From the NCBI GenBank assembly GCA_963762255.1, contig CAVXKA010000002.1:448001-512000 (forward strand): DNA of 64,000 nucleotides, read 5' to 3'. The translations under genes were made by a program, and so were the position numbers. The notes beneath the pieces are model-generated. The model had not been told where the DNA came from and did not search any database. It saw only the letters and a program-made list of their open reading frames with translations. The DNA comes from Candidatus Eiseniibacteriota bacterium. GTDB lineage: Bacteria > Eisenbacteria > RBG-16-71-46 > JABDJR01. Each line of letters starts with the position of its first letter. Position 1 is the first letter of the stretch. Below, one piece after another: positions 29,006 to 61,181 of this stretch.

Positions 29006-29145
29006 ATCAGCACTTTATGATCCTGGCTAACCTATCAGGGTAAAACCCTCCCCGGCTGCACCAGACCTAATGTGCAAGGCCCGCGCGGCGATGCGGTCGC
29101 GTGGCGTGTCGTTCCGTGATCGTTTCAACCGAGGTACTCCATCTC

Positions 29146-40589: not shown

Positions 40590-41366
40590 CTTGTCCTGCG
40601 CCAGCCGCGCCTCGTCGGTCCCCGGGCACTCCCGGACCACCGATTCGAAATAGCGCCGGGCGGTCGGATTATCGGCCTTGCGCAGGAAGGCGTACCCAAC
40701 CTTCAGAGTAGCCGCGCACACCTTGTTGCCCTCCGGGTACATGTCGCGCACCTTCAGCAGTTCCTGCACGGCCCGGTCCAGATCACCGAGGGCGAAGTAG
40801 CACTCTCCCAGCCAGTACTGCGCATTGTCGGCGCGGTCGGACTGGGGATAGGACTTGAGGAAGTCCTGGAAGCCGGCCACCGCAAGCTGGTAGTTTCCGC
40901 GCGAGTAGTCGCGGTAGGCGGCATCGTAGACCTCGTTCTCCCCGCCCGCGGGCCGAGTCTCCGGGGTCGAGGCTCCCGCGCCCCCGAGCGAATCGGCACT
41001 GGCGGGAGGCGCCACCGGGGGCCGCGAGGCGCGAACGTCCTCCACGCGCCGCAGGCTCCGATCCATCCGCGTCCCCTGGTCCTCCAACTGGGCGCCGATG
41101 TTCTCGATGCGCTCCTCGATGCTGCGCAACTGCGCGTTCGTATCGGCGCGCATCGCCGTCGTGGTCTCCCCTTGCTCATCCAAGCCGGCCTTCATCTCCC
41201 GGACCAGAGCGAGGAGTTCGGTCTGCTCGCGTCGGAGCGATTCCACCTCCTCCCGGGTGACCTCCGCGTTGACCGGCTGGCGAAAGAACGCGCCCACGCA
41301 CCCGGTGACCCCCAGGGAAAAGGAGACCAGTAGGAACGCAAGCGTGCTGCGTGACCGTGGGCTCAT
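40572..41366 (-). CDS. ybgF: Tol-Pal system protein YbgF/CpoB (coiled coil plus TPR, lipoprotein)
   Basis: YDAAY...F.DFLKSYP.S..ADNAQYWLGECYF; downstream of pal. Confidence 0.9.
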   Translation of the reverse strand: MSPRSRSTLAFLLVSFSLGVTGCVGAFFRQPVNAEVTREEVESLRREQTELLALVREMKAGLDEQGETTTAMRADTNAQLRSIEERIENIGAQLEDQGTRMDRSLRRVEDVRASRPPVAPPASADSLGGAGASTPETRPAGGENEVYDAAYRDYSRGNYQLAVAGFQDFLKSYPQSDRADNAQYWLGECYFALGDLDRAVQELLKVRDMYPEGNKVCAATLKVGYAFLRKADNPTARRYFESVVRECPGTDEARLAQDKLASLR

Positions 41367-41414
41367 GGCGTGCACCCATCCGCGCCCCGGGCTCACACCC
41401 GGGGCGCCGGCGGT

Positions 41415-41933
41415 TTAGGGAATGAGGAAATGGACGAGCCGGTTCTGCGACCAGGCACTCTCGTCGTGGCCCTGAGCGAAGGGCTTCTCTTCACCGTAGG
41501 AAATCGTGCTCAAGCTGGACGCGCTGACCCCGAGGTCGACCAGGTACGCCTTCACGACCTCGGCGCGGCGCTGACCGAGGGCCAAGTTGTACTCCTCGGT
41601 GCCCCGCTCGTCACAGTGCCCTTCCAGGGTGACCTTGGCGTCGGGGTTCTCCTTCAAAATCCGCGCGTTTTCCTGGAGGACCGCGCGGGCATCGCCGCGA
41701 AGCTCGGCCTTGTCGTAGTCGAAGTACACGTCCTTCACCCGGGTCTTCCACGCCAGGCGATCCTCGCGCACCTCCGGGGTCTCCGGCTGCGACGGGGGCT
41801 CCACCGTCTCCCGGGGCGTCGTGCGGTCGATCTCAACGGTGGGCTCCGGTTTCTTGCCGCAGCCGAAAAGCACGATCACTGCCAAACTCGCCAAACCTAT
41901 GAGCGACCGATGTCCAAGTATCTTGCTGTTCAT
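41415..41933 (-). CDS. pal: Peptidoglycan-associated lipoprotein Pal
   Basis: Lipobox LFGC; YFDYDK, EGHCDERGTEEYNLALGQRRA, SYGEEKP. Confidence 0.95.
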   Translation of the reverse strand: MNSKILGHRSLIGLASLAVIVLFGCGKKPEPTVEIDRTTPRETVEPPSQPETPEVREDRLAWKTRVKDVYFDYDKAELRGDARAVLQENARILKENPDAKVTLEGHCDERGTEEYNLALGQRRAEVVKAYLVDLGVSASSLSTISYGEEKPFAQGHDESAWSQNRLVHFLIP

Positions 41934-42056
41934 GGTATGAGGCTCCCTCCTGGTTCAGTAAAAATCCTAGACTCGAAATGTACCGGTCCCGGCCCCATTC
42001 GGCAAGAGACGGCGCAACCGTCGCTCTCGAACCCGGGCCGCAAACTGTCGATGTCG

Positions 42057-43424
42057 TCAGCGGGTCGGTACCGGGGACCAAGCGGGTGCGCTGTTGTTGC
42101 CGCCCCCGATCGTGAGCGACCGCACCACGCCGCTGTCCACGTCCAGCACATAGAGCCCCTTGGCTCCTCCCCGCGTGGAGCTGAACACGACGTGCCGCCC
42201 GTCAGGCGCCCACCGGGGATGCTCATCGCTGCCCGGACCCCGGGTAATCTGGCGTTCCCCACCCAGGCCGCTCGCATCCACCACGCAGATTCGGAAGAGC
42301 CCGTCCCGGCGCGACGCATAGACGAGCCGATCTCCCTTGGGAGACCAGTCCGCCTGATCGTTCCATTTTCCCTCGAAGGTCATGCGACGCAACCCGGTCC
42401 CGTCGGCTTCCATCACATAGATCTGCGGCGTACCGGAACGGTCCGAAGTGAACGCCATCCGCCGCCCGTCGGGGGACCACGAAGGCGACGTGTTGATGCC
42501 GCTGGAGCGCGCGACTCGCCGGCGGTTGCGACCGGAGAGATCGCTCACGTAGATCTCGCTCGCTCCGCCCTCGGTGTTGGCGTAGGCGATCAGAGATCCG
42601 TCCGGGCTGTACGCAGGAGCGCCCTGCACTCCCTTGCCCCCGATCAGCGGCCGTTCCTTGCTCCCCGCGACGTCCACCGTGTACAGGTCCGGATCGCCGC
42701 TCTTGTACGACACGTAGGCAAGGGTCGATCCGTCCGGACTCCAATCCGGAGAAAGGTTGATGGTTCCGTTCCGAGTGGCCGGACGCAATCCGCTCCCGTC
42801 GTAGTCGACGATGAAGACCTCCTTGTGCCCCCCCCGGTCGGAGACGAACGCGACCCGTGTGCGCGATATCCCCGTCTCGCCGGTGAGATAGAGCACGATG
42901 TCGTCGGCGAATCGATGCGCGGCCTCACGGAAATTCTCGGGCGGAGTACGGTATTCCCGGCCGAAGATGAGCGCCCGCGCGGGGAGCGACTCGAGGGATC
43001 CGCGCAAGACCAGCTCTCCAGCGGCGACGCGCACTTCCCCCCGCACCAGCGCCTGGGCTCGCAGCGCCCCCATCGTATCGCCCTCCGCCATGCGGGGAAT
43101 GGCGAACAGGGTGAAGTAGCCTGAATAGTCGAGGTCGTTCGCGGTCACGCTCTGCACGGCCCGCGCGTCGGCACCGGTCGCCCCCGGACCACGCAGGAAG
43201 TCCTCGAACACGAGCCGGATCTTGCTGACTCCGGTGTCGGTGATCACGACCCGTTCCTCGGGCTGCAGCCCGCCCTCGGACTGCGCCTCGACGAGGCCGG
43301 TCCAGGTCGCCAGCGGGAGCAGACAGACCGGCAACCAGGCTCCGCGCGTCCAGCGGCCCCATCCGCGGCGCCGCTTCCTCCGTTGGGTCACACGTATCTC
43401 GACCGCCGCGTGCCCGCTTCTCAT
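42057..43424 (-). CDS. tolB: Tol-Pal beta-propeller protein TolB
   Basis: AHRFADDI, TRVAFVS, repeated P.WSPDG (PD40) motifs; start uncertain. Confidence 0.92.
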   Translation of the reverse strand: MRSGHAAVEIRVTQRRKRRRGWGRWTRGAWLPVCLLPLATWTGLVEAQSEGGLQPEERVVITDTGVSKIRLVFEDFLRGPGATGADARAVQSVTANDLDYSGYFTLFAIPRMAEGDTMGALRAQALVRGEVRVAAGELVLRGSLESLPARALIFGREYRTPPENFREAAHRFADDIVLYLTGETGISRTRVAFVSDRGGHKEVFIVDYDGSGLRPATRNGTINLSPDWSPDGSTLAYVSYKSGDPDLYTVDVAGSKERPLIGGKGVQGAPAYSPDGSLIAYANTEGGASEIYVSDLSGRNRRRVARSSGINTSPSWSPDGRRMAFTSDRSGTPQIYVMEADGTGLRRMTFEGKWNDQADWSPKGDRLVYASRRDGLFRICVVDASGLGGERQITRGPGSDEHPRWAPDGRHVVFSSTRGGAKGLYVLDVDSGVVRSLTIGGGNNSAPAWSPVPTR

Positions 43425-43426
43425 GT

Positions 43427-44197
43427 TCAAGGCTCGTCTCCGATCCGTTGAAACACCGCCGTCACACCGAGCTGATCGCCTGCGTAGGCCTCCGGCAAGG
43501 GGGGAAGCTGCCGTACCTCGTGGACCGCCCGGTCCACGGATCGATCGTACAGCGCCCACCCGGAGGGCTCCTGCAGGAAGGGCTGCACGATGCTCCCGTC
43601 CCGGCGGATGATGAAGTGAATGGTGGCGCGTGTCACGCCCTGCCCGCCGGGAGGTCTCACCCAGGCCTGCGCAAGGCGGCTCATCACGATCTGAAGATAG
43701 TAGTCGTGCTTGAAATCGGGTTGGTCGACCGTGCCGAGAGAAACCGGACCTTCCGGCGCCTCGTTGGGGGTCGCGCGCTCAACCGGTGGCTGCTCGGAGA
43801 CGACAGGCGGCGTCTCGGCCTTCTTGATCTCGGCCACGACCGCCTTTGTTTCCTCCCGCGGCTTCTCCGGCTTCTTTCGCGGATCCTGGATCTTCACCGC
43901 GTCGGGTTCAGGCTTCTTCTCGGCGGCCGGCTTCTCCTGCGGCTTATCTTGAGGTCGCACAGGCACCCGCGCGGGAACCGGGGGGGCGTAGTTCGGCTCG
44001 GGCCACTCGACCAGGGCAACCTGGTAGACCGGTTCAGCGAAGATCGGCCGGACCCGATGGACCAGCGGGATCGAGATGAGGAAGACCACCGCGAGGTGCA
44101 CACCGAGGCTCAGAGCGAGGTAGCGGGTTACCCCGACCCCCTCGGCTCCCGGCCCGCGTGCCTCCTTACGCCGGCTTGAAGTCAGGACGAATCTCAT
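43427..44197 (-). CDS. TolA/TonB-family periplasmic energy transducer
   Basis: TM anchor SLGVHL, Pro/Lys/Glu-rich linker, C-terminal YY...W..P...F.I.RDG...SG...D...RAV...LPPLP; start uncertain. Confidence 0.8.
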   Translation of the reverse strand: MRFVLTSSRRKEARGPGAEGVGVTRYLALSLGVHLAVVFLISIPLVHRVRPIFAEPVYQVALVEWPEPNYAPPVPARVPVRPQDKPQEKPAAEKKPEPDAVKIQDPRKKPEKPREETKAVVAEIKKAETPPVVSEQPPVERATPNEAPEGPVSLGTVDQPDFKHDYYLQIVMSRLAQAWVRPPGGQGVTRATIHFIIRRDGSIVQPFLQEPSGWALYDRSVDRAVHEVRQLPPLPEAYAGDQLGVTAVFQRIGDEP

Positions 44198-44509
44198 GGC
44201 ATTTCGGAACACGGTACCGCTGCGAGCGGCGATTCTCTCCCTCTCAAGGTTGCCTTTCCGCGCGGATCACAGCAGAATACCCCGCTGCGGGGCCGGTTGT
44301 TTCCGGTTTCTGACCCGCCGCACCTGCGGGCGCGGGCTCTACCCTCGAACCGGCCGCGCCCCGTGACCAGAGAGCATTCGCTCGCCTGATCGAGCCGGCC
44401 ACCCGGGGTGAGTTCGTCGCGCAGGACGATTGCGGACTCCGTTCGAATCGTGATTCAACTATACCTTGGATTGTCTGCGGTATCTCTCCAGCGTGTCAAG
44501 GAACCCGTC

Positions 44510-49074: not shown

Positions 49075-50073
49075 CTATCCGCGGCTTTCCATGTAGTGGA
49101 TGAGGTCCACGACGCGGCACGAGAAGCCCCACTCGTTGTCGTACCAACAGATGACCTTCACGAGATTCCCGTCCATCACCTGGCTCATCTTGCTGTCGTA
49201 CACGCTCGAGAAGGTGCTGTGCACGATGTCGGTGGAAACGAGCTCGTCCTCGCTGTATTGGAGCACGCCCTTGAGGGGCCCTTCCGCCGCCTTGCGAAAC
49301 GCCGCGTTCATCTCCTCCTTGGTCAGGCTCTTCTCCATCTCGGCGACGAGATCGACCACAGAGCCGTCCGGGACCGGTACCCGGATCGCGAAGCCGTCCA
49401 GCTTGCCCTTCAACTCGGGGATCACGGTCCCGATCGCCCGCGCCGCCCCCGTCGTGGTCGGCACCACGTTGATGGCCGCCGCCCGCGCGCGGCGCAAGTC
49501 CTTGTGAGGCAGGTCGAGGAGGTTCTGGTCGTTGGTGTACGCATGGATCGTCGTCATCCACCCCCGCTTGATCCCCCAGTTGTCGTGCAAGACCTTCACC
49601 GCCGGGGCGAGACAGTTCGTGGTGCAGGAGGCGTTCGAGATCACGAAGTGTTTCGCCGGATCGTATTCCGCGTGGTTGACCCCCATGACCAGCATGGCGT
49701 CCGCACCCTTCGAAGGAGCCGTGACGATCACCCTCTTCGCACCCGCATCGAGGTGGGCCGCCGCTTTCTCCCGGTCCGTGAATCTGCCCGTGGATTCGAT
49801 GACGAGGTCGATTCCCATCTCCTTCCACGGAAGCTTCTTGGGGTCGGTCTCCTTGAGCACCCGGAACTTGTCGTCCCCGCAACGGATGTGCTCTCCGTCG
49901 ACGGTCACCGGCGCGGACAGGTTCCCGTGCACCGAGTCGTGGCCGAGGAGATGGGCGAGGGTCCGGGCATCGGTCAAGTCGTTGACCGCGACAAATTCAA
50001 TACTGGGATCGTTGAGGGCGACGCGGAAAACCAGGCGGCCGATGCGGCCGAAGCCGTTAATGGCGACTCTCAT
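49075..50073 (-). CDS. gap: Glyceraldehyde-3-phosphate dehydrogenase (type I)
   Basis: INGFGRIGR, SNASCTTNCLAP, WYDNEWG. Confidence 0.97.
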   Translation of the reverse strand: MRVAINGFGRIGRLVFRVALNDPSIEFVAVNDLTDARTLAHLLGHDSVHGNLSAPVTVDGEHIRCGDDKFRVLKETDPKKLPWKEMGIDLVIESTGRFTDREKAAAHLDAGAKRVIVTAPSKGADAMLVMGVNHAEYDPAKHFVISNASCTTNCLAPAVKVLHDNWGIKRGWMTTIHAYTNDQNLLDLPHKDLRRARAAAINVVPTTTGAARAIGTVIPELKGKLDGFAIRVPVPDGSVVDLVAEMEKSLTKEEMNAAFRKAAEGPLKGVLQYSEDELVSTDIVHSTFSSVYDSKMSQVMDGNLVKVICWYDNEWGFSCRVVDLIHYMESRG

Positions 50074-50239
50074 TGATGAGCTCCCTTCTTAACGTGATCG
50101 AGACGGCGCTCGCGGAAGTCCACGGAAGCGCCCGAGAAACGCGGAGTTCCCGGCCCGGGCGGGCGGGCGGCGCGGCCGGCCGCGAAGCGTCCTGTCCGAA
50201 AAGCACAAAACTCGATTCCACTTCGGAATCGCGCCGAAG

Positions 50240-50268
50240 ATGGTATTCGGGGCCTGATGAGGTGTCAA
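50240..50268 (-). promoter_or_regulatory. Sigma-70-type promoter of gap-pgk-tpiA
   Basis: TTGACA-N17-TACCAT. Confidence 0.6.
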
Positions 50269-50309
50269 GGTAACCGCTGCCGCGCGCGCGGGGAGCGGTG
50301 CGATCGCGC

Positions 50310-51803
50310 CTAGTATCCGATGAAGTCGGAGGAATAGCGCAGGACATAACGCCCCGTGCCCGTCTCGTCCACGAACACGAACTTGAGGCCGGTCATGCTG
50401 GTCGTGAACTCGCGCTCAGGGAACAGCGGCGTCCCCTGACGCGTGTAGGACCAGATCTCGTAGGGACGCGTGTCGGCCTCGTCGTTGGTGGCGAGAAGTC
50501 GGCCCTCCTCGTTCTCCCTCGTCAACTCTTCCACGCGGCGGTCCAGTTGGCGGTCTACGGTGGGCAGAAGCTCGCGTTCGATTTCGTCGGGGTCGCCGAA
50601 GCGGATGAAGATGCGGCCGCGGTCGGTGATCATCCCCTTCATGCCGTGAGCGCTGAATTCCCGATTGGCGAAGGCCACTCGGCGCAGGAATTCGCCCCGC
50701 AGTTCGTTCTGAGCGGACTGGGGAGTCGGGTCCGACTCGGTCCAGAATCGCTGAATGTAGAGCTCGCGGTCACCGAAGGACATCTCCTTGAACTTCTCGT
50801 ACTCGGCCTCTGTGAAGAGCACGCGGGCCTCATCCAGAACGTCCTGCTCGCTCCGATCCCACGAGTCCGAATTCCACAGCACATTGAACGGCCGCTCCGA
50901 GGCGGTCTCCTCGCCGGTGGCCACATTCTCCAAAGTCGCGCGCAGCACGAACTGCCCGCTGCCGGCCTGAGAAAGATCGAAGCTCACGACCCGGACGCAT
51001 TCACCCGAGGCGCAGCGCACGGTGTCGGGCGCAGGAGCGGTCACCGACCCGGACGGTCCCCGAATCTCGTAGTGCGCCACGAATGCCCTCTCCCCTTCCA
51101 CCCCCTCCCGCAGATCGTAGATCTCGTAGTAGGCGGTCAATCGCGGCTGCAGCAGGCCGTAACCCCGCGACGGATTGGGGATCACGTTCAACCCGTTCTT
51201 CTCGAAGGGGCCGTCGGCGGTGCTATCCCCGACCTCCCAGGCGAACTGAAGGTCGCTGATCCCGAAGCTCTTCCCCACGAAAGGAGGCGGTTCGAGCGGA
51301 CCTTCTCCGGCGCCGTTTCGGCGCTTTCCGGTGAACATATAGAGCAGACCGCGCTTGCGGGCGTTCAGATCCTCGACCGCCACCTCGACACTGCGGGCAC
51401 GTGGGTCGAGAGCTTCACGGAGGAGCAGTACCTGGGCATGATCGGGGGACTGCGCCGTCGAGAGGTCGGGAACTCGAAACTCGTAGCGGTGCCCGGCCTC
51501 TCCCAACTCCCGCCCCTCCTCGTCCTTGAAGCGCAGCCGGACGTAGACTTGGCCGGAGTGGGCGCCGTTCCCGTCCTCCCGGAATTCGAGCTGATTGTTG
51601 GTGATCCTGAGGTAGTACTCCTCGATGACTTCCCCCGAGGCGCCCCTGAAGCCGGCATGGTCAGCCTGAAACCAGATGTCCCCGACCGAAGAGAGCGGGA
51701 ACCCCGCCGCCGCCGTCCGTCCGGACACCAGGAAGAGGACGCACAGGACGGCGAGCGTCGCAACCACCCACTCCCGGGCACACCGACCAGATGATTTCAG
51801 CAT
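50310..51803 (-). CDS. GWxTD-domain protein (variant motif GMITD)
   Basis: Signal peptide; ISDLQFA, VIPNPSR, FW...DPTP...NE...EF.RRVAFAN..F...GMITDRGRIFIRFGDPDEI, EIWSY, FVFVDETGTG.Y.L. Confidence 0.82.
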   Translation of the reverse strand: MLKSSGRCAREWVVATLAVLCVLFLVSGRTAAAGFPLSSVGDIWFQADHAGFRGASGEVIEEYYLRITNNQLEFREDGNGAHSGQVYVRLRFKDEEGRELGEAGHRYEFRVPDLSTAQSPDHAQVLLLREALDPRARSVEVAVEDLNARKRGLLYMFTGKRRNGAGEGPLEPPPFVGKSFGISDLQFAWEVGDSTADGPFEKNGLNVIPNPSRGYGLLQPRLTAYYEIYDLREGVEGERAFVAHYEIRGPSGSVTAPAPDTVRCASGECVRVVSFDLSQAGSGQFVLRATLENVATGEETASERPFNVLWNSDSWDRSEQDVLDEARVLFTEAEYEKFKEMSFGDRELYIQRFWTESDPTPQSAQNELRGEFLRRVAFANREFSAHGMKGMITDRGRIFIRFGDPDEIERELLPTVDRQLDRRVEELTRENEEGRLLATNDEADTRPYEIWSYTRQGTPLFPEREFTTSMTGLKFVFVDETGTGRYVLRYSSDFIGY

Positions 51804-51855
51804 GGCAATCCTCTCCTGCGCGGGACGGCGGGTCTTCGCGGCGACCCCATCCCCG

Positions 51856-51897
51856 AAAAGCGAAACGGGCAACGCGGGAGTGCCCCACGCTGCCCGT
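51856..51897 (-). terminator. Intrinsic terminator after the PorV-family gene
   Basis: 14-bp stem ACGGGCAGCGTGGG/CCCGCGTTGCCCGT followed by TTCGCTTTT on the minus strand. Confidence 0.6.
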
Positions 51898-51950
51898 CAG
51901 TCTCACCACCGGATGGCCGTCCGAGAACCGAGGCCCCCGGAATCGGTCTG

Positions 51951-52907
51951 TCAGAATCCAATCTCGAGCGAGAACCGATGCGACTCACCGAGATCCGACA
52001 TGCCGGTGTACGAGTAGTCGAATCGGGTCTCCGAGGAGAGCGAAGTCGGGAACTTCACGCCCACTCCGGCGGCGAGCTTCTCGGCGTCATAGCCGAAATT
52101 CGTGCCACCGCGAAGGAAGAAGAAGTTCTTGAACGCGTACTCCGCACCCAGATTCAGCCGTTCGTTGTTGTCGGGCGGGTGGCTGAACTCCGCGGTGGAT
52201 ATCACCTGATGCTCGAGCGCCTGATAGAGCATGATGGAGCCGCCCACACGAAACAGAATGGGCAGCTTGGCCGACTTGGCCCCGTCGATGTAGGACAGCT
52301 CCGACCCCATGTTCTGGATCGCCATCCCAACCTTCAGCGACCGGAATCCGGTGTCGTAGAGCGTCCCCACGTCAAACGCCAGTGCGTTCGATCCCAGGTC
52401 ATCCAGCCCCGCGTGTACGAGGCTCGCCGTCACACCCATCGAGAACTTGTCGGTGAGGGACCGGGCGTAGGTGAGGCCGTAGGAGGAGTAGCCGGCGTCG
52501 AAATACTCCCCCGTGCCGTCGGGATTGAACACCGTGGTCACCTCCATGTCGTCCGCATAGAGGGCCCGCGCGTTGACCGCCAGCATGCCGGGCAGGAACC
52601 CAAGGCTGAAGACGTATGTCCCCTGGGTCATGTTGACGTCCGCGGCCCAGTTCACATGGTGAACCGCGACGATGCTTCCCTGCAGCCGGGCGATACCGGC
52701 CGGGTTCCAATACACCGATGACGCATCATCGGCGACCGCGACAAAGGCCCCGCCCATCGCGGTGGCCCTCGCCCCGATAGGAATCTTCATGAACTGGCCG
52801 TCATAGGTGCCGACCTTTTCGAAGAACTTAGCCGCTTCGGCGCCGGCCGGCCACAGCCCCGCAGGAACCAGGCATAGCAGCGCGATTGCCACGACCAGAC
52901 GTTTCAC
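51951..52907 (-). CDS. PorV/PorQ-family outer-membrane beta-barrel
   Basis: KVGT..GQFMKIPIGARATAMGGAFVAVADDASSVYWNPAG; D.G.LY.TG; LNLGAEY...LRGG; C-terminal HRFSLEIGF; GTG at 52907 with RBS AGGAGG. Confidence 0.85.
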   Translation of the reverse strand: MKRLVVAIALLCLVPAGLWPAGAEAAKFFEKVGTYDGQFMKIPIGARATAMGGAFVAVADDASSVYWNPAGIARLQGSIVAVHHVNWAADVNMTQGTYVFSLGFLPGMLAVNARALYADDMEVTTVFNPDGTGEYFDAGYSSYGLTYARSLTDKFSMGVTASLVHAGLDDLGSNALAFDVGTLYDTGFRSLKVGMAIQNMGSELSYIDGAKSAKLPILFRVGGSIMLYQALEHQVISTAEFSHPPDNNERLNLGAEYAFKNFFFLRGGTNFGYDAEKLAAGVGVKFPTSLSSETRFDYSYTGMSDLGESHRFSLEIGF

Positions 52908-52946
52908 CGCAGTACCTCCTTGTGCCCTCATCCTCGAGCGGGGCTC

Positions 52947-55316
52947 CTATCGAATGATCACGAAACGGCCACGACATATCCCCTCGCTGGAATCCACCGA
53001 GTAAAGGTAGATCCCGCTGGTGACGTTTTGCCCGTTCCGGGTGATCATGTTCCAGAAATACGTCCCGTTTCCGTCCGCTCCGTCATGCTGCGCTTCCTGG
53101 ACCAAGTCCCCGGACAGCGTGTAGATTCGGATCGTCGCTCCTTCGTCCGGCAGATTGCGGAAGGCTATCTTGGTCCCGGTTGGATCGCGATCGCTGGGAG
53201 TCAGATCCCAGTCCGCCCGCCCCCGATAGGGGTTGGGGACCACTTTGACCTGATCGCAGCCTTTCGCAGCATTCCAGCGAGGCACGACCATCTCGGCCTC
53301 GACCGCCGACGGCAGTCCGCCTAGCTCGACGGTTTCGTCACGGTCCGTCAGCGCATTGTGCCGGGTGGTGAGGCCGAACGCAGTCACGGCGTAGAAGTAG
53401 ATCTTGCCGTTCAGGATCCCATTGGTATCCTCGTATTGATACCGGCCGACGGGGTAGATCGCCTTGGGAATATCGTCATCGGTGTAGCCGATCTCCTTGA
53501 CATGGTTCTGTCGCACCGTCCGGAGCAGCTGCGCCCCCTGGGAATTCGCGTCCTCGTCATCGCGGAACTCCGCGAGCTTCATCCACTCCTCCGGAGCCGG
53601 CCCGATCGATCCCTCGGGGCGCTGCCAGTTGTCGGCGCGCCAGACCCGGTACCCTTTGAACAACTCCTCACCGGTGATCGGGTCCTTGCGGAGTTCGGAG
53701 CTGTTGTCCCACTGCAGGATGACCTTGTGATCGCCGGCCGGAGAGGAGGCAACCAGATCCGGATCCAGGAGGTCCAGATCCGGGTCGGTGTTCAGCTTGG
53801 GAGGCGGCGGGGCGGTTGTCCCCACCCACTGAATCAGGGCCTCCGCCCCGAGGTCACCGGTGCAGGAGTTGCAGTCCGCATCCACCCAGTGGCAATTCCC
53901 CACATCCCGAAAGTAGACCTTGGTTTCGAGCGTGTCGCACGGATCGTCCCAAACGATCTCGTCCCCTTGCTCGAGTACCATGAGGCAGCGCTCCCTGCCG
54001 TCAACACCCGTAGCGGTGTTTTGGTCCGCATTGATGTACTTGCCATCGAACACCCGTTGCGCGTTCACCGCGTTCGCTCGGTAACCGTCTGCGCCATCTC
54101 CGATCACGTATGCAGTCTGAAAGACAAGCGACTCACCGGGGTTGAGCTGCGCGAAGGGCCCCGCCGCGATCACGTACCTGTAGTCGTCGGGCTTGGTCGC
54201 GTTTCGCTGCGGCTTCGTGCCCGCGGCGATCAGGGCATAACGCTCGTCATCGTTTTGCGGATCGGAGTTGGCGCCGGAGGAGCTGAACCAGCCCACCGTG
54301 GTCAAACCCACGTTCTGCGGAGCGCGCACACCGGTGTCGTCGGTGGTGTGACCGAGAAAAAGGCTCCCGAACACGCCGGGGACGTCGCCCCCGGAGATCG
54401 TCGTCCCGTTGTCGGGAGCGTCCCACATGAACGCGGTGTCCATCGCCAGATCGAAAGTAGCGCAGGGGCCGGCCAGCTGAGGGTCGGTCACCGTCGTGTC
54501 GATATGGGCCCACCCCACCAGGTCGTCGCTCCAGTACTTGTCGGCGGTCTTGGGGCCGGCGTCGGAGTCCGAGAAGAAGCCCAGATACATCTCCCGCAGC
54601 CGCTGGTCGCCGGTGTTGACGATCTCGAATTCGAACCCGACGAATTCGTTAATTCCGGCGGTGGCCCATTGGAAGGATCGCTGCCGGACGAGGATGTTCA
54701 GCGGCACGTGATCCGAAACCTGCGCGAGGGCTTCGGGAGTATCGTCCTTGTACATGCAGGAGAACATCTGCTGGCCGATGGCGGCGTAGTCCTCGTCGAT
54801 GCGGCCGTCGCCGTCGTCATCCAGGCCGTTTTGAAAGTCCTCGTCGTCGAAGCCGTCCTTGTCGTCGTCGACGGCATCCGGATCCGCGCCGCCCAGCCGG
54901 TTACCGCCCCTCAGCCCCTCGAACGACTCGTACACCGTCCAGGTAGCGAGAAGCTCCGGACGCAGCTCCAACGGGGACGCGGTGGACACGTGCGGCTCGG
55001 AGTCGGAGCCGATCGCGCCAATCCAGAGGCCCGAGAAATAGAGGTATTCGCCGCCGCGCCAACCTGCGGAGAAATCATCGATAAACGGGTTCCCGATGAT
55101 CCCTACGTTGGTGATCTGCAGGGTCAGGAGCCCTGCGTTGTGGGCGAAGCTGTAAGGTGGCCGCAACGCATACAGATCGGAAGGTGCGCGCCCCAGAGCG
55201 GTGGGGAGTTCCACGTTCGTGCGCGCCTGGGCGGCCGGCGCTGCCAGAATGAGGCCGGCAGCGAGGGTCGTCAAAACCACCCGTCCAAGCTGTTCGAATC
55301 CAAAGTGCCTGGTCAT
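52947..55316 (-). CDS. Secreted protein with Ca-binding DxDxDG repeats and a T9SS-like C-terminal sorting domain
   Basis: Signal peptide; HNAG...ITN.G, EYLY.SGLWIGA, DDDKDG/DDDGDGRIDED, FKGYRVWR, NGKIYFYAVTAF, VKVVPNPY...FRNLP...TIRIYTLSGDLV...WN...SGIYLY...GRFVIIR. Confidence 0.78.
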   Translation of the reverse strand: MTRHFGFEQLGRVVLTTLAAGLILAAPAAQARTNVELPTALGRAPSDLYALRPPYSFAHNAGLLTLQITNVGIIGNPFIDDFSAGWRGGEYLYFSGLWIGAIGSDSEPHVSTASPLELRPELLATWTVYESFEGLRGGNRLGGADPDAVDDDKDGFDDEDFQNGLDDDGDGRIDEDYAAIGQQMFSCMYKDDTPEALAQVSDHVPLNILVRQRSFQWATAGINEFVGFEFEIVNTGDQRLREMYLGFFSDSDAGPKTADKYWSDDLVGWAHIDTTVTDPQLAGPCATFDLAMDTAFMWDAPDNGTTISGGDVPGVFGSLFLGHTTDDTGVRAPQNVGLTTVGWFSSSGANSDPQNDDERYALIAAGTKPQRNATKPDDYRYVIAAGPFAQLNPGESLVFQTAYVIGDGADGYRANAVNAQRVFDGKYINADQNTATGVDGRERCLMVLEQGDEIVWDDPCDTLETKVYFRDVGNCHWVDADCNSCTGDLGAEALIQWVGTTAPPPPKLNTDPDLDLLDPDLVASSPAGDHKVILQWDNSSELRKDPITGEELFKGYRVWRADNWQRPEGSIGPAPEEWMKLAEFRDDEDANSQGAQLLRTVRQNHVKEIGYTDDDIPKAIYPVGRYQYEDTNGILNGKIYFYAVTAFGLTTRHNALTDRDETVELGGLPSAVEAEMVVPRWNAAKGCDQVKVVPNPYRGRADWDLTPSDRDPTGTKIAFRNLPDEGATIRIYTLSGDLVQEAQHDGADGNGTYFWNMITRNGQNVTSGIYLYSVDSSEGICRGRFVIIR

Positions 55317-55332
55317 ACGTCTACTCCCGCCT

Positions 55333-58035
55333 TTAGAAGCTGACGCCGATGCCGACGCGGATATTGCGACCTTCCGAGAAGACCCGCGGATCGTTGAGCG
55401 GCACCCAGTCCTGGATGCCGTCCTCGTTCAGGTCATCGCTCAGGTAGGCCCCGCCCGCCCGCCCCGTCTCGCTGTAAAACACCTGGTAGTCGGTGGTATT
55501 CGCCTGCGGAGGCTGCGGCCAGTTGGCCGGTTCGAGATCCTGGATGTTCCGCGCGTCCAGGACGTTGTTGCCGCGCAGGAACACCTTCACCCGCTGTCCC
55601 CAGATCTTATAGTACTTCTCCGCCTGCACGGTCAGGGACGCCGAACTCGGCAACCGCCGGGAGTTAGTGAGCAAGGGGTCGGGCTTGCGCACGTTTCGGT
55701 CCCGGGGCGTGTAGGGGAACCCCGTGCCGAACGTCCACACGAAATTGGCCGACCAGTTGTTGGGCTGCGCGACCGTCGCGGTCGCCGAGACCGTGTGCCG
55801 CTGGTCCCAATCGAGCGGCTGCTCGGAGATGGGCAAGTACAGGAAATCCACCTGCTGCTGCTGATTGGGGTCGGAGGCCACCCCTGTCGCCACACCGTAG
55901 GTGTAGGAGAGCTCGCCGGCGAAGTTCCGGGTGAACCGTTTGGTGAGGCTCAGCTCAAACCCCCGGGAAGAGGCGTAGTCCTTGTTCACGTATTGCGTGA
56001 CCAGCGCCGGGCTGTCCCCTGAACTGACCTCCTCGATCGTGAGCAGTCCGAAGATATCCTTGAAGTAGACCGAGAACTGTCCGGTCACGCTCTCGGTAAA
56101 CATGTGCTGAAGCGCCGCCTGGTACGAGACGGTCGTCTCGTTGTCCAGGTTCGGGTTCCCGCGGGTGCGCACCGCGGCGCCCCGGTTCTCGAAGATGTAC
56201 TGCCGGTCCGGGACCTGACTGAACCGCCCGTAGTGGAACGAGAACACGTCGCGGTCGGAGATCGGGTAGGCGATGCCCACGCGCGGGCTCCACTGCTCGC
56301 GGGTGCGGTTCTCCACCTCGGCGGCATCCAGTTGGTTCCCCACCGAGAAGTAGTCGTAGCGGATCCCCCCGTTGATCACCATGCCCTCGTGTTCCCAGCG
56401 GTCCTGGAGGTACAGGGACCCTTCGGGATTGTAGTAGTGGTATTCGCTCCGGTAGAGCCCGATTTCGCCTTCGGCGTTGATCCGGTTGGGAAAGTCCACA
56501 GCGAGGAGCGCGAGGTCGTTGTACTTGAGCTCGATCCCGGTCTTGACCTTGTGAGCACCGAGCTGACTGGTCCAGTCCGACTTCAGCGTCCACACCCGGG
56601 ACGATTGATCGCGATAGGTGGGCACGTCGCCGTTGCTCGCAAAGAAGGGCAGGGTCCGGAAGTGGATCCGGTCCCGCCACTGATCGGGATACTGCGCCTC
56701 GTACTCCCAGGGAAGCTTGTCCTGCACCGAGGAAAGGAAGTCGTAAGAGTTCTCGCTGAACTTGAGGGTGTAGAAGGTCCCCGTGCTCAGGGTGTGGCTC
56801 CACACGAGCTTGTACTGCCGAAATGTGTTCTCGTAGTTCGGCGTGTGTTCGGCGGCATTGTAGTAGAGCCAGTTGGGACCTTCCTGCCTCTCGCTGAAGG
56901 CGCCGTATCGAGTCTCGATCGCGCCATTGTCGGCGATCGTGTCGATGCGGGTCTCGACGAAGCCCTCCGCGCTGAAGCTGTGCCGGTAGGTGTCCCAGGT
57001 GCGGTCGTTCTGCAGCACTTCCATGGTCATCTTGTAGTTGGGGCCGGGCTTCCAGGCCAGCTTGGCCTGCAAGTTGATCTCGTTGTCCTGCCGCGGGCCC
57101 ACTCGGATGAAGTCCAGAATCTGGTGCCGTTCGCGCTGCTCGCTGGTCTGAAGATAGGTGTCCGACCACGTACCCTGGACCGAGACGTAGTACGTGAGAT
57201 TGCGAATCGGAGAAGGACCGCCCATCCCGAGGGAAAGCCGGTCGTAGTTGTTATAGGTCTTGTCCGGGGCGCCGTAGTCGTCGGTCATGTAGCTGACTTC
57301 ACCCTGGAACGTATCGGTGCCTTCCTGGGTGATGATGTTGACGACTCCCGACTGAGCGTTCCCGTACTCGGCATCCATCCCGCCGAGGAGCACGTCGGAG
57401 TCCGACACGGACACGGTGGCAACGTTGACGCCTCCGCCCACCAGCGGGTCGTTCACCGGAATGCCGTCGATCTGGTACTGGACCTCGCCCGCTCGCCCCC
57501 CGCGGAAGTGAAGCTGGCCGCCCTGGGCGACGACTCCGGACTTGAGGGCGACCGCCTCGGCAAACGTGTCGACCGGCAGGCGATCGAGTTCCTCGGAGCC
57601 CACGCGATGCTGGGTGCCGGAGTCACCCCGCCGGATGAGCTCTTTGGTGGCCTCGACGCGCACGACTTGCATCGTGGCGACGACGGTGGTCTTGATCTCG
57701 AAGTTGGCGGTGGTGGTCGCTCCGGCGTTGATCTGCACCGTGCGTTCCTGCTGCTCGTATCCCAGGAAAGAGACGCGGATCGTGTAGGTTCCCGCCGGCA
57801 CGTTCTTGACGGTGTACTTCCCATCGGAGTCCGTCATAGCGCCCATCTTGGTGGTGAGAACAACGACGTTCGCGTAGGCCTTGCTCTGGCCGTCGACATC
57901 GCGCACGGTCCCGGTGAGCGTACCCGTACCCTGAGCGGAAGCGGTGGCGACCATGGCCAGCGTCGAACACGCAGCAAGGAGATGGATCAGCATGCCTCTG
58001 GGACGGACTCTCATGACCTCGTCAGTTCCTTTCAT
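55333..58035 (-). CDS. TonB-dependent receptor with N-terminal carboxypeptidase-regulatory-like domain
   Basis: GTLTGTV...GAMTD.DG.Y...VPAGTY, plug LHFRGGRAGE..Y.IDG, GGMDAEYGNAQSGVVNI, SPRVGIAYPI, GNPNL, DWDQRH, terminal F; ATG at 58035 with RBS GGAGGTGA. Confidence 0.92.
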   Translation of the reverse strand: MKGTDEVMRVRPRGMLIHLLAACSTLAMVATASAQGTGTLTGTVRDVDGQSKAYANVVVLTTKMGAMTDSDGKYTVKNVPAGTYTIRVSFLGYEQQERTVQINAGATTTANFEIKTTVVATMQVVRVEATKELIRRGDSGTQHRVGSEELDRLPVDTFAEAVALKSGVVAQGGQLHFRGGRAGEVQYQIDGIPVNDPLVGGGVNVATVSVSDSDVLLGGMDAEYGNAQSGVVNIITQEGTDTFQGEVSYMTDDYGAPDKTYNNYDRLSLGMGGPSPIRNLTYYVSVQGTWSDTYLQTSEQRERHQILDFIRVGPRQDNEINLQAKLAWKPGPNYKMTMEVLQNDRTWDTYRHSFSAEGFVETRIDTIADNGAIETRYGAFSERQEGPNWLYYNAAEHTPNYENTFRQYKLVWSHTLSTGTFYTLKFSENSYDFLSSVQDKLPWEYEAQYPDQWRDRIHFRTLPFFASNGDVPTYRDQSSRVWTLKSDWTSQLGAHKVKTGIELKYNDLALLAVDFPNRINAEGEIGLYRSEYHYYNPEGSLYLQDRWEHEGMVINGGIRYDYFSVGNQLDAAEVENRTREQWSPRVGIAYPISDRDVFSFHYGRFSQVPDRQYIFENRGAAVRTRGNPNLDNETTVSYQAALQHMFTESVTGQFSVYFKDIFGLLTIEEVSSGDSPALVTQYVNKDYASSRGFELSLTKRFTRNFAGELSYTYGVATGVASDPNQQQQVDFLYLPISEQPLDWDQRHTVSATATVAQPNNWSANFVWTFGTGFPYTPRDRNVRKPDPLLTNSRRLPSSASLTVQAEKYYKIWGQRVKVFLRGNNVLDARNIQDLEPANWPQPPQANTTDYQVFYSETGRAGGAYLSDDLNEDGIQDWVPLNDPRVFSEGRNIRVGIGVSF

Positions 58036-58079
58036 CAAGGCTCACCTCCAAAAGCTCGTGCTCCTTGCGGAGATCCGCA

Positions 58080-58108
58080 ACTATAAGCAACACGGTAGCT
58101 TGAGTCAA
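58080..58108 (-). promoter_or_regulatory. Proximal sigma-70-type promoter of the TBDR operon
   Basis: TTGACT-N17-TATAGT. Confidence 0.65.
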
Positions 58109-58269
58109 CCAGCGCTGAGGCTAGCGCGGGGCGACTCGTCCGGGGGACACCGGCGGCACGAGGCCGCGACGGGTCGAAACCCGGGCCGAGCAGCGAGAAC
58201 TCTCGTGAGGCAGGACCGCCGGCACCATACGGCGGCTGAGAGTGAGGATACCTGGATCCTGATATCGGT

Positions 58270-58298
58270 ACTCTAGGCCATCCTCTTAGCCCTGTCAA
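58270..58298 (-). promoter_or_regulatory. Distal sigma-70-type promoter of the TBDR operon
   Basis: TTGACA-N17-TAGAGT. Confidence 0.6.
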
Positions 58299-58320
58299 GG
58301 TTCCCGACCCCCTGAGTCCC

Positions 58321-59775
58321 CTAAAAGAGGTACTTCACGTAGGCCGAGAACTGCGACCGGTCGTTATTGGTCTTGGCGTTCACGTCCACGTCGTAGGCCA
58401 GATCGAACTGCCAGATGCCCCCGGACGGGACGATGCCGATGCCGGTGGACAGCGTCGACCGGTCCAGGTCCCGTTCGCTGACCGTGTTGCCTGCGACGAC
58501 CGTGGTCTTATCCGTGGATTGGGTCTGAGCGAAACCGAGGCGCCCCACCAAGATCTCCCCCGCCAGATACTCCCCTCCCACCCGGAACACGTTTTCATCG
58601 AGCTCGGACTTGATCCCCTCCGAAAATCCGGTGACTTCTGAGCCGGAGACCTTCATCTCGGCAGCCAGCAGAAGCCGAGCCCGAAGCTGCGTGGTCGACA
58701 CTCCCAGCACGAAGGCGTTGCCGTCGGCGGAAACGTCCAGATCGGCGCGGGAGCCGATGATGTTCGGGTTCTGGATGACACTGAAGTCCTGCTGCGCGCT
58801 CAGAACCGCTCCCGAGAGGGTGAGACGATTCGGAATCACTTCCAGCCGCGCGCGGGCGCGAAACGAGTCGTCCGACCGATCTTCGGTAAACGTGTCTGTG
58901 TCGAATCGAACCACCTCGTCGGTCGGGTTGTAGCCGAACCGTTGAGACCAGCTAATCGCGACGGATTCCTTACCCTCAAGCTTCCGGTGCGAGTAGTCCA
59001 CGCCGGCCTGAAGGCGTCCCCGGTCGATAAAGCCGTGGAACGACGCAAGTCCCCCCGGACGACTCCAGTCAAAGGTGTCGGTGTGGAATGGCCCCCGGCT
59101 CGTGCCGTCGACCTGACTCGAGATGATCTCCCCCCGCGCGCCCACCGTGACCCCGCGGGCAACGCGGAACGTTCCGCCGAGGCCGGCGTGGATGAGCGTG
59201 GACTCGTGGGAGATGTTGTAGACGCGCGGAGAGAAGACGCTTTCGGCCTCATCGGTGAGGGCGAGCCGCACTCCAGCTGAGAAGCGGGGGAAGAAGTACC
59301 GGCTTCCCACAAGCTCCAACCCGGAGATCTCGTACGAGTTGCGGAGCCGAGTGACGTCGTCGGTCCTGGCTTCGGCGTAATCGATGCGGCCACCCAGACC
59401 CATCTTGCCGGGGGCATGATAGGCAACCAGGAACGAACCCTCGTTGACGCGGGAATTGTCGCGGTTGCTGGCGGCGTCGCGCTCGGTGAACTCCTGGTGG
59501 CCGTACCGAGTGTCGATGGACCACGAATCACGATCATCACCGAGCCCGGCCGGGTTGTGGCTGAAATCGTAGGCGTCCAACTCGTAGTTCTCGTCGGAGA
59601 CCGCGGCTTCGAACCCGCCCATACCGTCCAGGCGAACGGTTCCCGGGCCGAAGACCACTTGGGTCGGCTGCAGGAACATCCGCTCGTTCACGAGGAGTTG
59701 CGCGGAGGCGGTGCCGGCCGTCAGCGTCATGAGGAGGAAAAACGAAAGCGCTCGGATCTGCATTTCCTTCACCAC
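58321..59775 (-). CDS. Outer-membrane beta-barrel with a FadL/PorV-like N-terminal motif
   Basis: Signal peptide; GTVRLDGMGG..AAVSDE...HNPAGL; amphipathic strands; terminal YVKYLF; GTG start after GGAGGT. Confidence 0.72.
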   Translation of the reverse strand: MVKEMQIRALSFFLLMTLTAGTASAQLLVNERMFLQPTQVVFGPGTVRLDGMGGFEAAVSDENYELDAYDFSHNPAGLGDDRDSWSIDTRYGHQEFTERDAASNRDNSRVNEGSFLVAYHAPGKMGLGGRIDYAEARTDDVTRLRNSYEISGLELVGSRYFFPRFSAGVRLALTDEAESVFSPRVYNISHESTLIHAGLGGTFRVARGVTVGARGEIISSQVDGTSRGPFHTDTFDWSRPGGLASFHGFIDRGRLQAGVDYSHRKLEGKESVAISWSQRFGYNPTDEVVRFDTDTFTEDRSDDSFRARARLEVIPNRLTLSGAVLSAQQDFSVIQNPNIIGSRADLDVSADGNAFVLGVSTTQLRARLLLAAEMKVSGSEVTGFSEGIKSELDENVFRVGGEYLAGEILVGRLGFAQTQSTDKTTVVAGNTVSERDLDRSTLSTGIGIVPSGGIWQFDLAYDVDVNAKTNNDRSQFSAYVKYLF

Positions 59776-59789
59776 TGCAAACCTCCTGG

Positions 59790-61181
59790 CTAACACCGGC
59801 GCGCGGTGCCGACTCGCGGCTTGCGCGGTTCGAACTGCAGGCGAATCTCGGTGGACCCGCTCCCCACGGAGGAGGAGTTGTTCAGCACCCCGATCACCAT
59901 GCGATAGAAGTGGGTACCATCCGGGTTGACGATCAGATCGTCGCCGTTGCCGGTGCTCAGATCCCTCATGATCTCGAGGGTCCGCACCGGAAAGCCCTTG
60001 TCCTGATTCACGGTGTAGGCCGCTCGCGCGCGCACGTCCCGGGCGCTCTCGGAGGGAAGCTGGAGCCCCCAACCCTGGACGCCGTCGTACTCGTCGGGCT
60101 GAAGTTTGGACCCCCACGGCAGAGGCTTCGTAAGCCGCGAGCAGGCCAGCACGCTCCCGCAAACGAAACGCGTGGAGGTCGGATACCAGAGCGCGAGATC
60201 GGCGGGGACTCCCTTGTTGCGGGCTTGGAGATCCTCCTCGGTAGGTTCACGGTCTACGGACGGGCACTGGGTGAGACGTAACGGGATCGGAGACGATCCG
60301 TTCCAGTTGGCCACATACAGGGGTGAACCAACGTCGGCGACGACGGAGTTCGCATTGACCCACAGATCCTCACAGAAACCCGACGTATTCGCGTACTTGG
60401 TGGACACAGGCTCGGGAAGGTCATTCACGAAAGCCTGCCAGTTCGCGAACTGGAAGACCGGATGGAGATTGGTCCGCCCTGCCCGCCAGACCCAGACGTC
60501 CGTCGGCCGGGCCCCGGAAGCAACCGGGATCGCCGCACTGGGTGCCTTGACACCGAGTCCGGCCATCAACTCCTGATTCAAGCTCACGAGGTCCGAGAGG
60601 GGCTCCTCGTCCGGAGCCTCGGTAAGCGCGATGAAGATCTGGTCTTCCTTGCCGTCAGGGTTGATGCGAGTCCAGCGCACGCTGTCCGCCGGCTCCGTGG
60701 CTAATAGCCACGGGTCGCAGTCCGGGGTCGCGGAAACGTCGGCGATCGTACTCGAGACGATTTCCCCGGTGATGGAATCGGGCTTCCCGTAGGCCAGGAA
60801 ATCCGCCCTGTAGTTGTTGGTGTTGTCGGGGTAGCGGACGAGGAAGTAGATCCGATTCGTCCCCCCCACCCGGGCTTCGTCGGTCCAGATCGCCCGGACC
60901 TCGACGTAGTATTCCGCACCGCCGGTGCCGTTGGCCCCGGTCATGCGCAAGAAGATGGGCTCCGCGCCCGTCCACTCGCGCTCCTCCGCGACACCGTCGA
61001 TCTGCGGCAACACGTCGTTGCAGGGATCGGCGCTTCCGCCGGGATCGCCGTAGGTCACGGTGAGGATCGAGAAATCCCCGATCTGAGATGGATCGAACTG
61101 CGTGACTCCGGAGCAGCCGTAGGCCAGCCACAGAACAATGGCGGCCGCGGCGACCGGTAACAGGACGCGCAACAGCTTCAT
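59790..61181 (-). CDS. Lipoprotein with an ethylbenzene-dehydrogenase-gamma/DOMON-like domain
   Basis: Lipobox AYGC; PQIDG...EW, VEVRAIWT...IYFLVRYPD, EDQIFI, DVWVWRAGRTN, SARDVRA, TLEIMRDLSTGNGDD. Confidence 0.65.
   Translation of the reverse strand: MKLLRVLLPVAAAAIVLWLAYGCSGVTQFDPSQIGDFSILTVTYGDPGGSADPCNDVLPQIDGVAEEREWTGAEPIFLRMTGANGTGGAEYYVEVRAIWTDEARVGGTNRIYFLVRYPDNTNNYRADFLAYGKPDSITGEIVSSTIADVSATPDCDPWLLATEPADSVRWTRINPDGKEDQIFIALTEAPDEEPLSDLVSLNQELMAGLGVKAPSAAIPVASGARPTDVWVWRAGRTNLHPVFQFANWQAFVNDLPEPVSTKYANTSGFCEDLWVNANSVVADVGSPLYVANWNGSSPIPLRLTQCPSVDREPTEEDLQARNKGVPADLALWYPTSTRFVCGSVLACSRLTKPLPWGSKLQPDEYDGVQGWGLQLPSESARDVRARAAYTVNQDKGFPVRTLEIMRDLSTGNGDDLIVNPDGTHFYRMVIGVLNNSSSVGSGSTEIRLQFEPRKPRVGTARRC

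Follow-up and report, generated by a model that had tools for sequence, protein, structure and literature searches.

The loci of the SusC/SusD (RagA/RagB) type pair the gene of a TonB-dependent receptor with the gene of a surface partner. In the TbpA-TbpB system with Slam, the co-receptor of a TonB-dependent receptor is put on the cell surface by an outer-membrane barrel dedicated to it. In type IX secretion (T9SS), the type A C-terminal domain (CTD) is a beta-sandwich of seven strands, the last of which bears a basic residue, according to PMC11285876. In solved complexes this last-strand residue contacts PorV, and in Flavobacterium release from the SprA translocon needs the Gld energy chain (both from portions of PMC10994853). 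There is a precedent for tails retained on cognate barrels (described in a section of PMC10202324). Here we analyse a locus of three genes, encoding a TonB-dependent receptor, a secreted cargo protein and a barrel of the PorV/PorQ family, in a stretch of 64,000 nucleotides from Candidatus Eiseniibacteriota bacterium (GCA_963762255.1, contig CAVXKA010000002.1, positions 448,001 to 512,000), hereafter the window.

The three genes, together named the triad, follow each other in the order receptor, cargo, barrel (Table 1). The triad may be a unit for capture and import at the cell surface, with the barrel holding the cargo beside the receptor as a substrate-binding lid; we give this reading a probability of about one half. 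The triad is a real, widespread and apparently undescribed variant built from known parts: no description of it was found in the titles and abstracts of the open-access literature searched. An earlier reading made from the letters alone (the sequence-only reading) had proposed three tightly spaced genes with gaps of 16 and 39 bp, promoter sites and a hairpin, and all of these were located where it had placed them. The second gap is 39 bp if the barrel starts at GTG 52907, and 15 bp from the upstream ATG. The GTG is preferred, as it is preceded by GGAGG and agrees with the consensus start MKR of the relatives.

Homologous loci were collected as 80 regions taken from the 150 listed cargo matches; the 150 listed receptor matches contributed another 60. 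Since close kin are not independent, the counts are not statistics. Of 60 receptor-anchored loci, 50 contain the full triad, one has the receptor adjacent to the barrel, one is cut by a contig end, one has a broken cargo gene, and seven are lone receptors, mostly second copies. Among 85 cargo-anchored open reading frames (ORFs), 43 have both the receptor and the barrel, 36 neither, four only one of them, and two could not be assessed. The 72 metagenome receptor loci comprise 27 full triads, 12 with the cargo that end before the barrel can be assessed, two with receptor and barrel only, four without a clear cargo, and 27 that are too short. In a species collection (33 cargo ORFs in 39 loci), 12 triads and five triads with one inserted gene, mostly from Cloacimonadota, were found; nine cargo ORFs have neither partner and seven could not be assessed. 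The same order was observed in loci whose titles name Krumholzibacteriota, Cloacimonadota (there with an inserted gene), Chlorobiaceae, Neomarinimicrobiota, Rhodothermales and Melioribacteraceae. In L017, L019, L020, L022 and L023, four of them titled Cloacimonadota, the receptor and the cargo are separated by about 2.3-2.5 kb, which leaves room for one gene. The neighbourhood survey suggested with the sequence-only reading thus finds the triad conserved, both in the phylum of the window and in several other lineages from the FCB group (Fibrobacteres-Chlorobi-Bacteroidetes). Within the phylum, the receptor clade is present in 144 of 153 genomes (117 of the 121 high-quality ones), mostly in a single copy, and the cargo family in all 121 sampled genomes. 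The cargo homologues that carry a name are labelled Ca. Eisenbacteria.

Cargo genes also occur away from their partners. In three loci (L191, L235, and L275 from genome G088, which has two orphan cargos) the receptor and the barrel are adjacent and the cargo gene is elsewhere. L167 (G046:C3:79569-88610) has a different order, cargo-receptor-barrel-cargo, in which a single receptor and barrel are flanked by two cargos. The orphan cargos retain 77-91% of the conserved positions in each segment except the N-terminal stretch, where the value is 63%, and they keep the tail. The orphan state arose repeatedly: strongly supported branches require at least 14 changes of label, and an orphan is often sister to the triad copy of the same genome. 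In the near-complete genomes G003, G007 and G027, the ratios of cargo, receptor and barrel genes of the window's clade are 4:1:2, 3:2:1 and 2:1:1. This excess of cargos fits exchangeable heads on one platform, and also fits a function of the cargo that does not involve the receptor.

The receptor has a signal peptide, a CarboxypepD_reg N-terminal extension, a plug, and a barrel ending in phenylalanine. The plug domain PF07715 scores 23.7 bits on the ORF and 28 bits, above the cut-off, in the genome search, so that the hidden Markov model (HMM) check of the plug had a positive outcome. The receptor profile matches solved TonB-dependent receptors at E ~1e-21. On the SusC/RagA model TIGR04056 it has 51.2 bits against a cut-off of 368.25, which places it outside the SusC/RagA subfamily. 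ExbB-like genes are present in all five genomes checked.

The cargo has a signal peptide, nine cysteines, two DxDxDG loops starting at residues 150 and 166, and no lipobox, and the sequence-only reading had noted a signal peptide, DxDxDG repeats, many cysteines and the lack of a lipobox; a lipobox-like pattern occurs in two of 117 relatives. A search against Pfam assigned the cargo to no family and matched no enzyme. The structure was modelled with AlphaFold2 using 117 homologues (predicted local distance difference test, pLDDT, 88.9; predicted template modelling score 0.88). The model consists of a beta-supersandwich, a cysteine-rich insert, an FN3-like beta-sandwich and a seven-stranded tail. 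The closest structure to the N-terminal domain is that of a bacterial glucoamylase, 1lf6_A (Z 19.6, root mean square deviation 3.2, 252 aligned residues; VIA); the N-terminal domains of glycoside hydrolase (GH) families GH15, GH94 and GH116 have Z of 18-19, and the fold is shared by GH174 fucanases, at Z 13.9, and by aldose epimerases, at Z ~13. The sandwich part of GH15/GH65/GH94/GH116-type enzymes is matched, and their catalytic helical barrel is missing from the model. D151, D166, D168, D170, D174 and D176 are invariant in the 117 homologues, and the loops are likely, judging by their motif, to bind calcium. Other invariant or near-invariant residues of the sandwich are E117, D191, H203, D250, D252, D264, D265, D299, H323 and D378. 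The family is large, with 2,506 clusters at 50% identity at E <=1e-30, and 9,886 at 1e-10, the latter partly through the tail. The N-terminal domain and the C-terminal part are constant, and the middle is variable. A search of the ESM Atlas with the N-terminal part returned unnamed clusters only.

The C-terminus of the cargo had been compared with a T9SS sorting domain. In the model it indeed folds as an Ig-like beta-sandwich: residues 691 to 787 contain seven strands, of which six have block pLDDT of at least 86. However, on TIGR04183 it scores 18.1 bits (E 0.0019, residues 712-787), below the cut-off of 23 bits. The cargo profile has weak matches to the C-termini of PorU and PorZ, and to no other solved structures. 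R784 occupies the position of the K/R residue of ordinary tails. The tail belongs to a type-A-like subtype with PNPY plus an insertion and the end G[RK]FxxI[RK]. When the HMM of this subtype was applied to the 61 tail-like C-termini of the genome, three scored 85-144 bits and the others at most 34. The three are this cargo (144 bits), the cargo of a second triad in the same genome (C3:492475-499623), and an orphan of 612 amino acids (aa). The last one (L160, G000:C3:727237-729075) has neither a matching N-terminal domain nor an adjacent barrel, and is a candidate client of a triad barrel in trans.

The barrel belongs to the PorV/PorQ family (NF033709, 194.9 bits with a cut-off of 90), and its profile matches the solved PorV 6h3i_F at E 1.2e-31; thus the assignment to the PorV family, also proposed for an HMM check, is upheld. 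It is neither PorV nor PorQ proper, with scores below both equivalog cut-offs (65.7 versus 250 for NF033710, 89.4 versus 220 for NF033711). In the tree, 41 triad barrels lie on one side of a branch and eight other paralogues from this genome on the other, with a support of 84 in the Shimodaira-Hasegawa-like approximate likelihood-ratio test (SH-aLRT) for barrels selected with a triad-built profile; the window's clade of 21 triad barrels has SH-aLRT 99. The sequence-only reading called this a private PorV paralogue. The separation of triad barrels from the other PorV paralogues bears this out, but the barrel seems to serve a subtype of tails rather than a single protein, since there are orphan cargos and a third subtype-tail protein in the genome. 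A strictly private barrel was rejected for the same reasons.

The T9SS set of this genome includes SprA, a PorU-like sortase (418.5 versus 420 bits, with Peptidase_C25), PorV-family barrels and about 60 CTD-like proteins. The earlier statement that sprA lies in the window is correct for its first ~1,050 bases only; the entire gene, as delineated by HMM, spans C2:443578-448808 and is split over two frames in the assembly. The second triad likewise carries several frameshifts. The frame breaks in both are probably assembly indels, because the sprA frames of close relatives are intact, at ~2,000-2,400 aa. SprA was found in all 41 genomes of the phylum searched for it. One run of genes (L150, G000:C3:162246-170878) encodes the PorU-like sortase, a PorV-family barrel and an inactivated M6-like CTD protein, and is probably the attachment-complex locus of this T9SS. 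A second gingipain/PorU-like protein, a CTD protein of 1,601 aa with Peptidase_C25 and FG-GAP repeats, is encoded in the window at 29101-33906 (plus strand). In L154/L155 (G000:C1:274899-286992), a CTD protein of 3,458 aa with Ig repeats precedes a PorV-family barrel to which TSP3 repeats and an OmpA domain are fused, an arrangement that suggests a peptidoglycan-anchored holder for a giant adhesin. The run L156 (G000:C2:899422-908650) encodes three barrels (divergent PorV-like, ComEA-type HhH and BamG/FadL-like) together with a Big_5 protein whose end is tail-like, a metallo-beta-lactamase-fold protein and a 5'-nucleotidase; it looks like a locus for scavenging of DNA or nucleotides at the surface.

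SusD (PF07980) was found in none of the 151 genomes of the phylum, with a positive control detected. GldN, the motor ring of the T9SS, was also found in none of the 151, with a control of 24 of 101 in another sample, and GldM in none of five genomes, without a positive control; divergent forms of both could escape these searches. The other sample consists of 101 genomes of the Bacteroidota-level phylum that holds a Rhodothermales triad carrier. It has GldN in 24 genomes, SusD in 53, and the cargo family in 47, where a match may cover part of the protein and whole triads were not assessed. The cargo family is present in none of the 24 GldN-positive genomes and in 47 of the 77 GldN-negative ones, whereas SusD occurs in 27 of the 47 cargo-positive genomes. 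Thus the family complements GldN more cleanly than SusD. The exclusion of GldN probably reflects one lineage split; it matters because release from SprA depends on the Gld energy chain in Flavobacterium. The idea that the cargo replaces SusD wherever it is found was rejected, as SusD coexists with it in those 27 genomes.

The signals around the triad are conserved in part. In the 10 kb scanned there are four promoter-like sites versus 1.3 +/- 1.2 in shuffled sequences. The proximal promoter is identical in all five loci of the same family, and a sigma70-like site lies ahead of the receptor gene in 53 of 90 clade-A loci, compared with 2% of base shuffles. Both sites of the tandem pair noted earlier are present here, but the pair was observed in only four of 90 relatives, and thus it was rejected as a conserved feature. 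Similarly, the hairpin taken for a terminator has 16 pairs, but its T-run is broken and terminator-like sites are at chance level overall (5 versus 6.1 expected). Of 91 clade-A loci, 69 have a hairpin of at least 9 bp behind the barrel, a count made without a shuffle control. In family f5 a hairpin follows the barrel in one of 13 loci, and the next gene, encoding a GWxTD-domain protein, starts within ~50 bases of the barrel. An Rfam scan of 49500-60500 gave no riboswitch or other RNA above threshold, with a lone chance-level hammerhead (E 0.27); there is no cobalamin clue to the substrate. Contigs from RNA libraries of two studies cover parts of all three triad genes and span both junctions. 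They prove neither a single transcript nor an expression level, and DNA carry-over is possible; as they hardly cover the GWxTD gene and the upstream barrel, they cannot rank the genes, and we do not use them as evidence.

The GWxTD gene follows the barrel in all 85 assessable loci of the window's clade. This link reaches one locus of Krumholzibacteriota, and the gene is absent from all 15 loci of the other clade in the species collection (14 with more than 2 kb of flank). The GWxTD protein is modelled with pLDDT 92 as two beta-sandwiches and the GWxTD domain, and Foldseek gave only generic tandem beta-sandwich matches, the best being RbmA (E 7.5e-9, TM score 0.20). At the other end, the receptor is preceded by the gene of an unnamed barrel in 69 of 85 loci, and by that of a lipoprotein in 27 of 81. 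Hence the triad is not the self-contained operon that it had been called: the GWxTD gene is linked to it in all 85 loci, and in family f5 the hairpin occurs in one of 13. A self-contained three-gene unit was accordingly rejected. The conserved neighbours are the barrel, the lipoprotein, the GWxTD gene and glycolysis genes, with TPI recognized by Pfam, and GAPDH, PGK and PFK which we take to be such from their sequences. The glycolysis genes are at best a faint hint of sugar uptake. The second triad of this genome is situated between a CBM9-like cargo and a glycoamylase cargo.

A cluster at 40572-44212 of the window (minus strand), 3' of gap-pgk-tpi-secG, encodes TolA/TonB-C, TolB, Pal and a TPR protein. 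No TolQ/ExbB match was found inside the window. In two other loci, L332 (G044:C3) and L336 (G083:C12), an ExbB/TolQ-like gene is observed ~7-8 kb downstream of the triad. At 13687-15156 (plus strand), behind a small probable lipoprotein, the window encodes an outer-membrane barrel whose N-terminus is of the FadL type and which matches the PorV family weakly.

Table 1. Positions of the triad, its parts and its neighbours in the window
Feature	Position	Strand	Remarks
TonB-dependent receptor ORF	55333-58038	minus	901 aa; start codon may be 58014
Secreted cargo ORF	52947-55316	minus	789 aa
Cargo N-terminal domain	54042-55184	minus	residues ~45-425, galactose-mutarotase-like beta-supersandwich (VIA, Foldseek)
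Two DxDxDG loops	54789-54869	minus	residues 150-176, starting at 150 and 166
Cargo beta-sandwich domain	53259-53726	minus	residues ~531-686; FN3-like label inferred from strand pattern
Divergent T9SS-type C-terminal domain	52950-53258	minus	terminus GRFVIIR
PorV/PorQ-family barrel ORF	51951-52931	minus	326 aa from ATG 52931; preferred GTG start 52907
Distal sigma70-like promoter	58270-58298	minus	TTGACA-17-TAGAGT, 10/12 consensus matches
Proximal sigma70-like promoter	58080-58108	minus	TTGACT-17-TATAGT, 10/12 consensus matches
Terminator-like hairpin	51856-51898 (stem-loop 51898-51864)	minus	16 pairs, imperfect/broken T-run
GWxTD-domain protein	50310-51803	minus	signal peptide; TIGR04514 98 bits; fourth gene of clade
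Upstream outer-membrane barrel	58321-59793	minus	no family; weak PorV-family match at C-terminus
Upstream probable lipoprotein	59790-61181	minus	EB_dh 24.4 vs 33.3 bits (sub-threshold); lipobox read from sequence
sprA, 5' part	1-1051	minus	T9SS translocon; remainder beyond window

Gene order, folds, families and distribution are results of the analysis; the export route, the retention, the receptor contact and the ligand we infer as follows. All three proteins have signal peptides and would be exported by the Sec system. The cargo would then very probably pass through the SprA translocon. Its subtype tail would likely be taken by the subtype barrel, and not by a general PorV, as gene order and the tree suggest. 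With somewhat less assurance, the tail would stay uncleaved and the cargo would be retained on the barrel like PorZ on PorQ. Finally, the supersandwich might bind a carbohydrate-type ligand and pass it to the receptor opened by TonB/ExbBD, a step that we consider an even bet. Extra cargo copies would be exchangeable heads on a shared receptor-barrel platform. In this phylum the unit would be a near-universal housekeeping importer, probably constitutive and not induced by substrate. The role of a lid is supported by the fold of the cargo, which is that of the N-terminal domain of glycoside enzymes without the catalytic barrel.

A number of observations weigh against this capture-and-import reading. 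A shared fold shows no ligand. Reduced-alphabet covariation in 98 paired triads (effective number 65) was underpowered and was discarded as noise, as the top scores included signal-peptide and cross-membrane pairs. The way in which the tree barrels were chosen favours their grouping, and the support is just 84. Eight of the ten PorV-like barrels of this genome are directly behind a tail-bearing gene (six by HMM, two by eye), so that pairing of cargo and barrel is general and the barrel can be explained without the receptor. Seven of the 60 receptor loci have neither partner, though these are mostly second copies, and 36 of the 85 cargo copies have no adjoining receptor. The N-terminal domain is also found on stand-alone proteins with ordinary tails (L010, L012). 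Thus it can exist without a receptor in cis. Synteny in the region is high anyway, with GAPDH nearby downstream in 45 of 64 loci, and the conserved neighbours of the window's clade include no carbohydrate-active enzyme or regulator in flanks of ~2.5-3.5 kb.

The common orphans, the general pairing of cargos with barrels and the stand-alone N-terminal domains would all be expected if the cargo were a calcium-stabilised surface protein (a coat or an adhesin) carried by a barrel of its own, and the receptor were merely co-expressed; a strong, conserved promoter and the lack of a riboswitch agree with this. However, the order receptor-cargo-barrel holds in distant lineages at 25-35% identity, the receptor and the barrel are adjacent without a cargo in three loci, and a cargo has both partners or neither in 79 of 83 assessable cases, which makes mere co-expression rather unlikely. 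Another possibility is that the cargo is a barrel-anchored surface enzyme, similar to SusG rather than to SusD, whose supersandwich cleaves or converts a polymer, the product being imported by the receptor. GH174 fucanases and aldose epimerases use the supersandwich fold catalytically, and the sandwich of the cargo has invariant and near-invariant acidic and histidine residues. On the other hand, its best matches (Z 18-19.6) are N-terminal sandwiches of enzymes whose catalytic barrel is missing from the cargo model, and Pfam contains no enzyme match; we consider a catalytic role quite improbable.

The distribution of GldN raises a different possibility, that the receptor is no importer but helps a motor-less T9SS, as an energiser or an accessory to export, and that a TonB pull frees barrel-cargo pairs from SprA, replacing the step driven by GldLM/GldKN in Bacteroidia. 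Release from the translocon needs energy (as stated in part of PMC10994853). SprA is universal in the 41 genomes of the phylum but GldN was found in none of the 151, the cargo family occurs only in GldN-negative genomes of the other sample, and the receptor is near-universal and mostly single-copy. However, the exclusion of GldN coincides with the limits of classes and may go back to a single event in the past, a divergent GldN could escape detection, and 30 of the 77 GldN-negative genomes, whose SprA status was unchecked, lack the cargo family. Furthermore, the receptor plug is normal, and other lineages have many paralogous triads, some of them beside glycan enzymes. This role of the receptor is therefore highly improbable. 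Very doubtful, too, is a broader scheme for SprA-positive FCB bacteria without GldKLMN, namely an older T9SS based on cargo-specific PorV barrels, in which a permanent platform of TonB-dependent receptor and barrel would carry exchangeable T9SS-delivered heads and TonB would supply Gld-type energy.

If the cargo is indeed a lid, a very large uncharacterised family would perform the capture at the surface for TonB uptake in many uncultured FCB lineages, and the T9SS and TonB import, so far studied apart, would become joined. That the version in one phylum is core and mostly single-copy, and that its heads were duplicated repeatedly, suggests a receptor platform of modular build. The exclusion of GldN raises the question of how cargo is released in SprA-positive bacteria without the Gld motor. 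If the broader scheme described above holds, the triad would represent a third way of providing TonB importers with lids, and a clue to the T9SS as it was before the gliding motor.

The triad resembles the polysaccharide utilization loci (PULs) with SusC/SusD in that the gene of a surface partner directly follows that of a TonB-dependent receptor bearing an N-terminal extension, and the logic is likely the same, capture and then import. However, the partner is a non-lipoprotein beta-supersandwich with a T9SS-type tail and no SusD match, the third gene encodes a barrel anchor, and the receptor has 51 bits on the SusC model against a cut-off of 368. Unlike PULs, the triad clade has no adjacent carbohydrate-active enzymes or regulator, and is a core, mostly single-copy locus among housekeeping genes. 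As in TbpA-TbpB with Slam, a barrel would serve the surface partner of a receptor, but the proteins are unrelated, and TbpB is lipid-anchored, whereas the anchor here would be a barrel-held tail. The triad is also similar to PorZ-PorQ and PorU-PorV, which belong to the T9SS attachment complex, and to the type B CTD proteins with PorP/SprF (as presented in parts of PMC10202324), where the gene of a CTD protein lies next to that of its own PorV-like barrel, on which the protein is likely retained. It differs from these pairs in being tied to a TonB-dependent receptor, in its type-A-like tail subtype, and in a barrel that falls below the PorV and PorQ equivalog cut-offs. SprA, a PorU-like sortase, PorV-family barrels and CTD proteins are shared with the canonical T9SS of Flavobacterium johnsoniae and Porphyromonas gingivalis (as covered in portions of PMC10994853). 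In contrast to the latter, GldN was found in none of 151 genomes and GldM in none of five, and instead of one shuttle there are about ten PorV-like barrels, most of them behind their own cargo gene.

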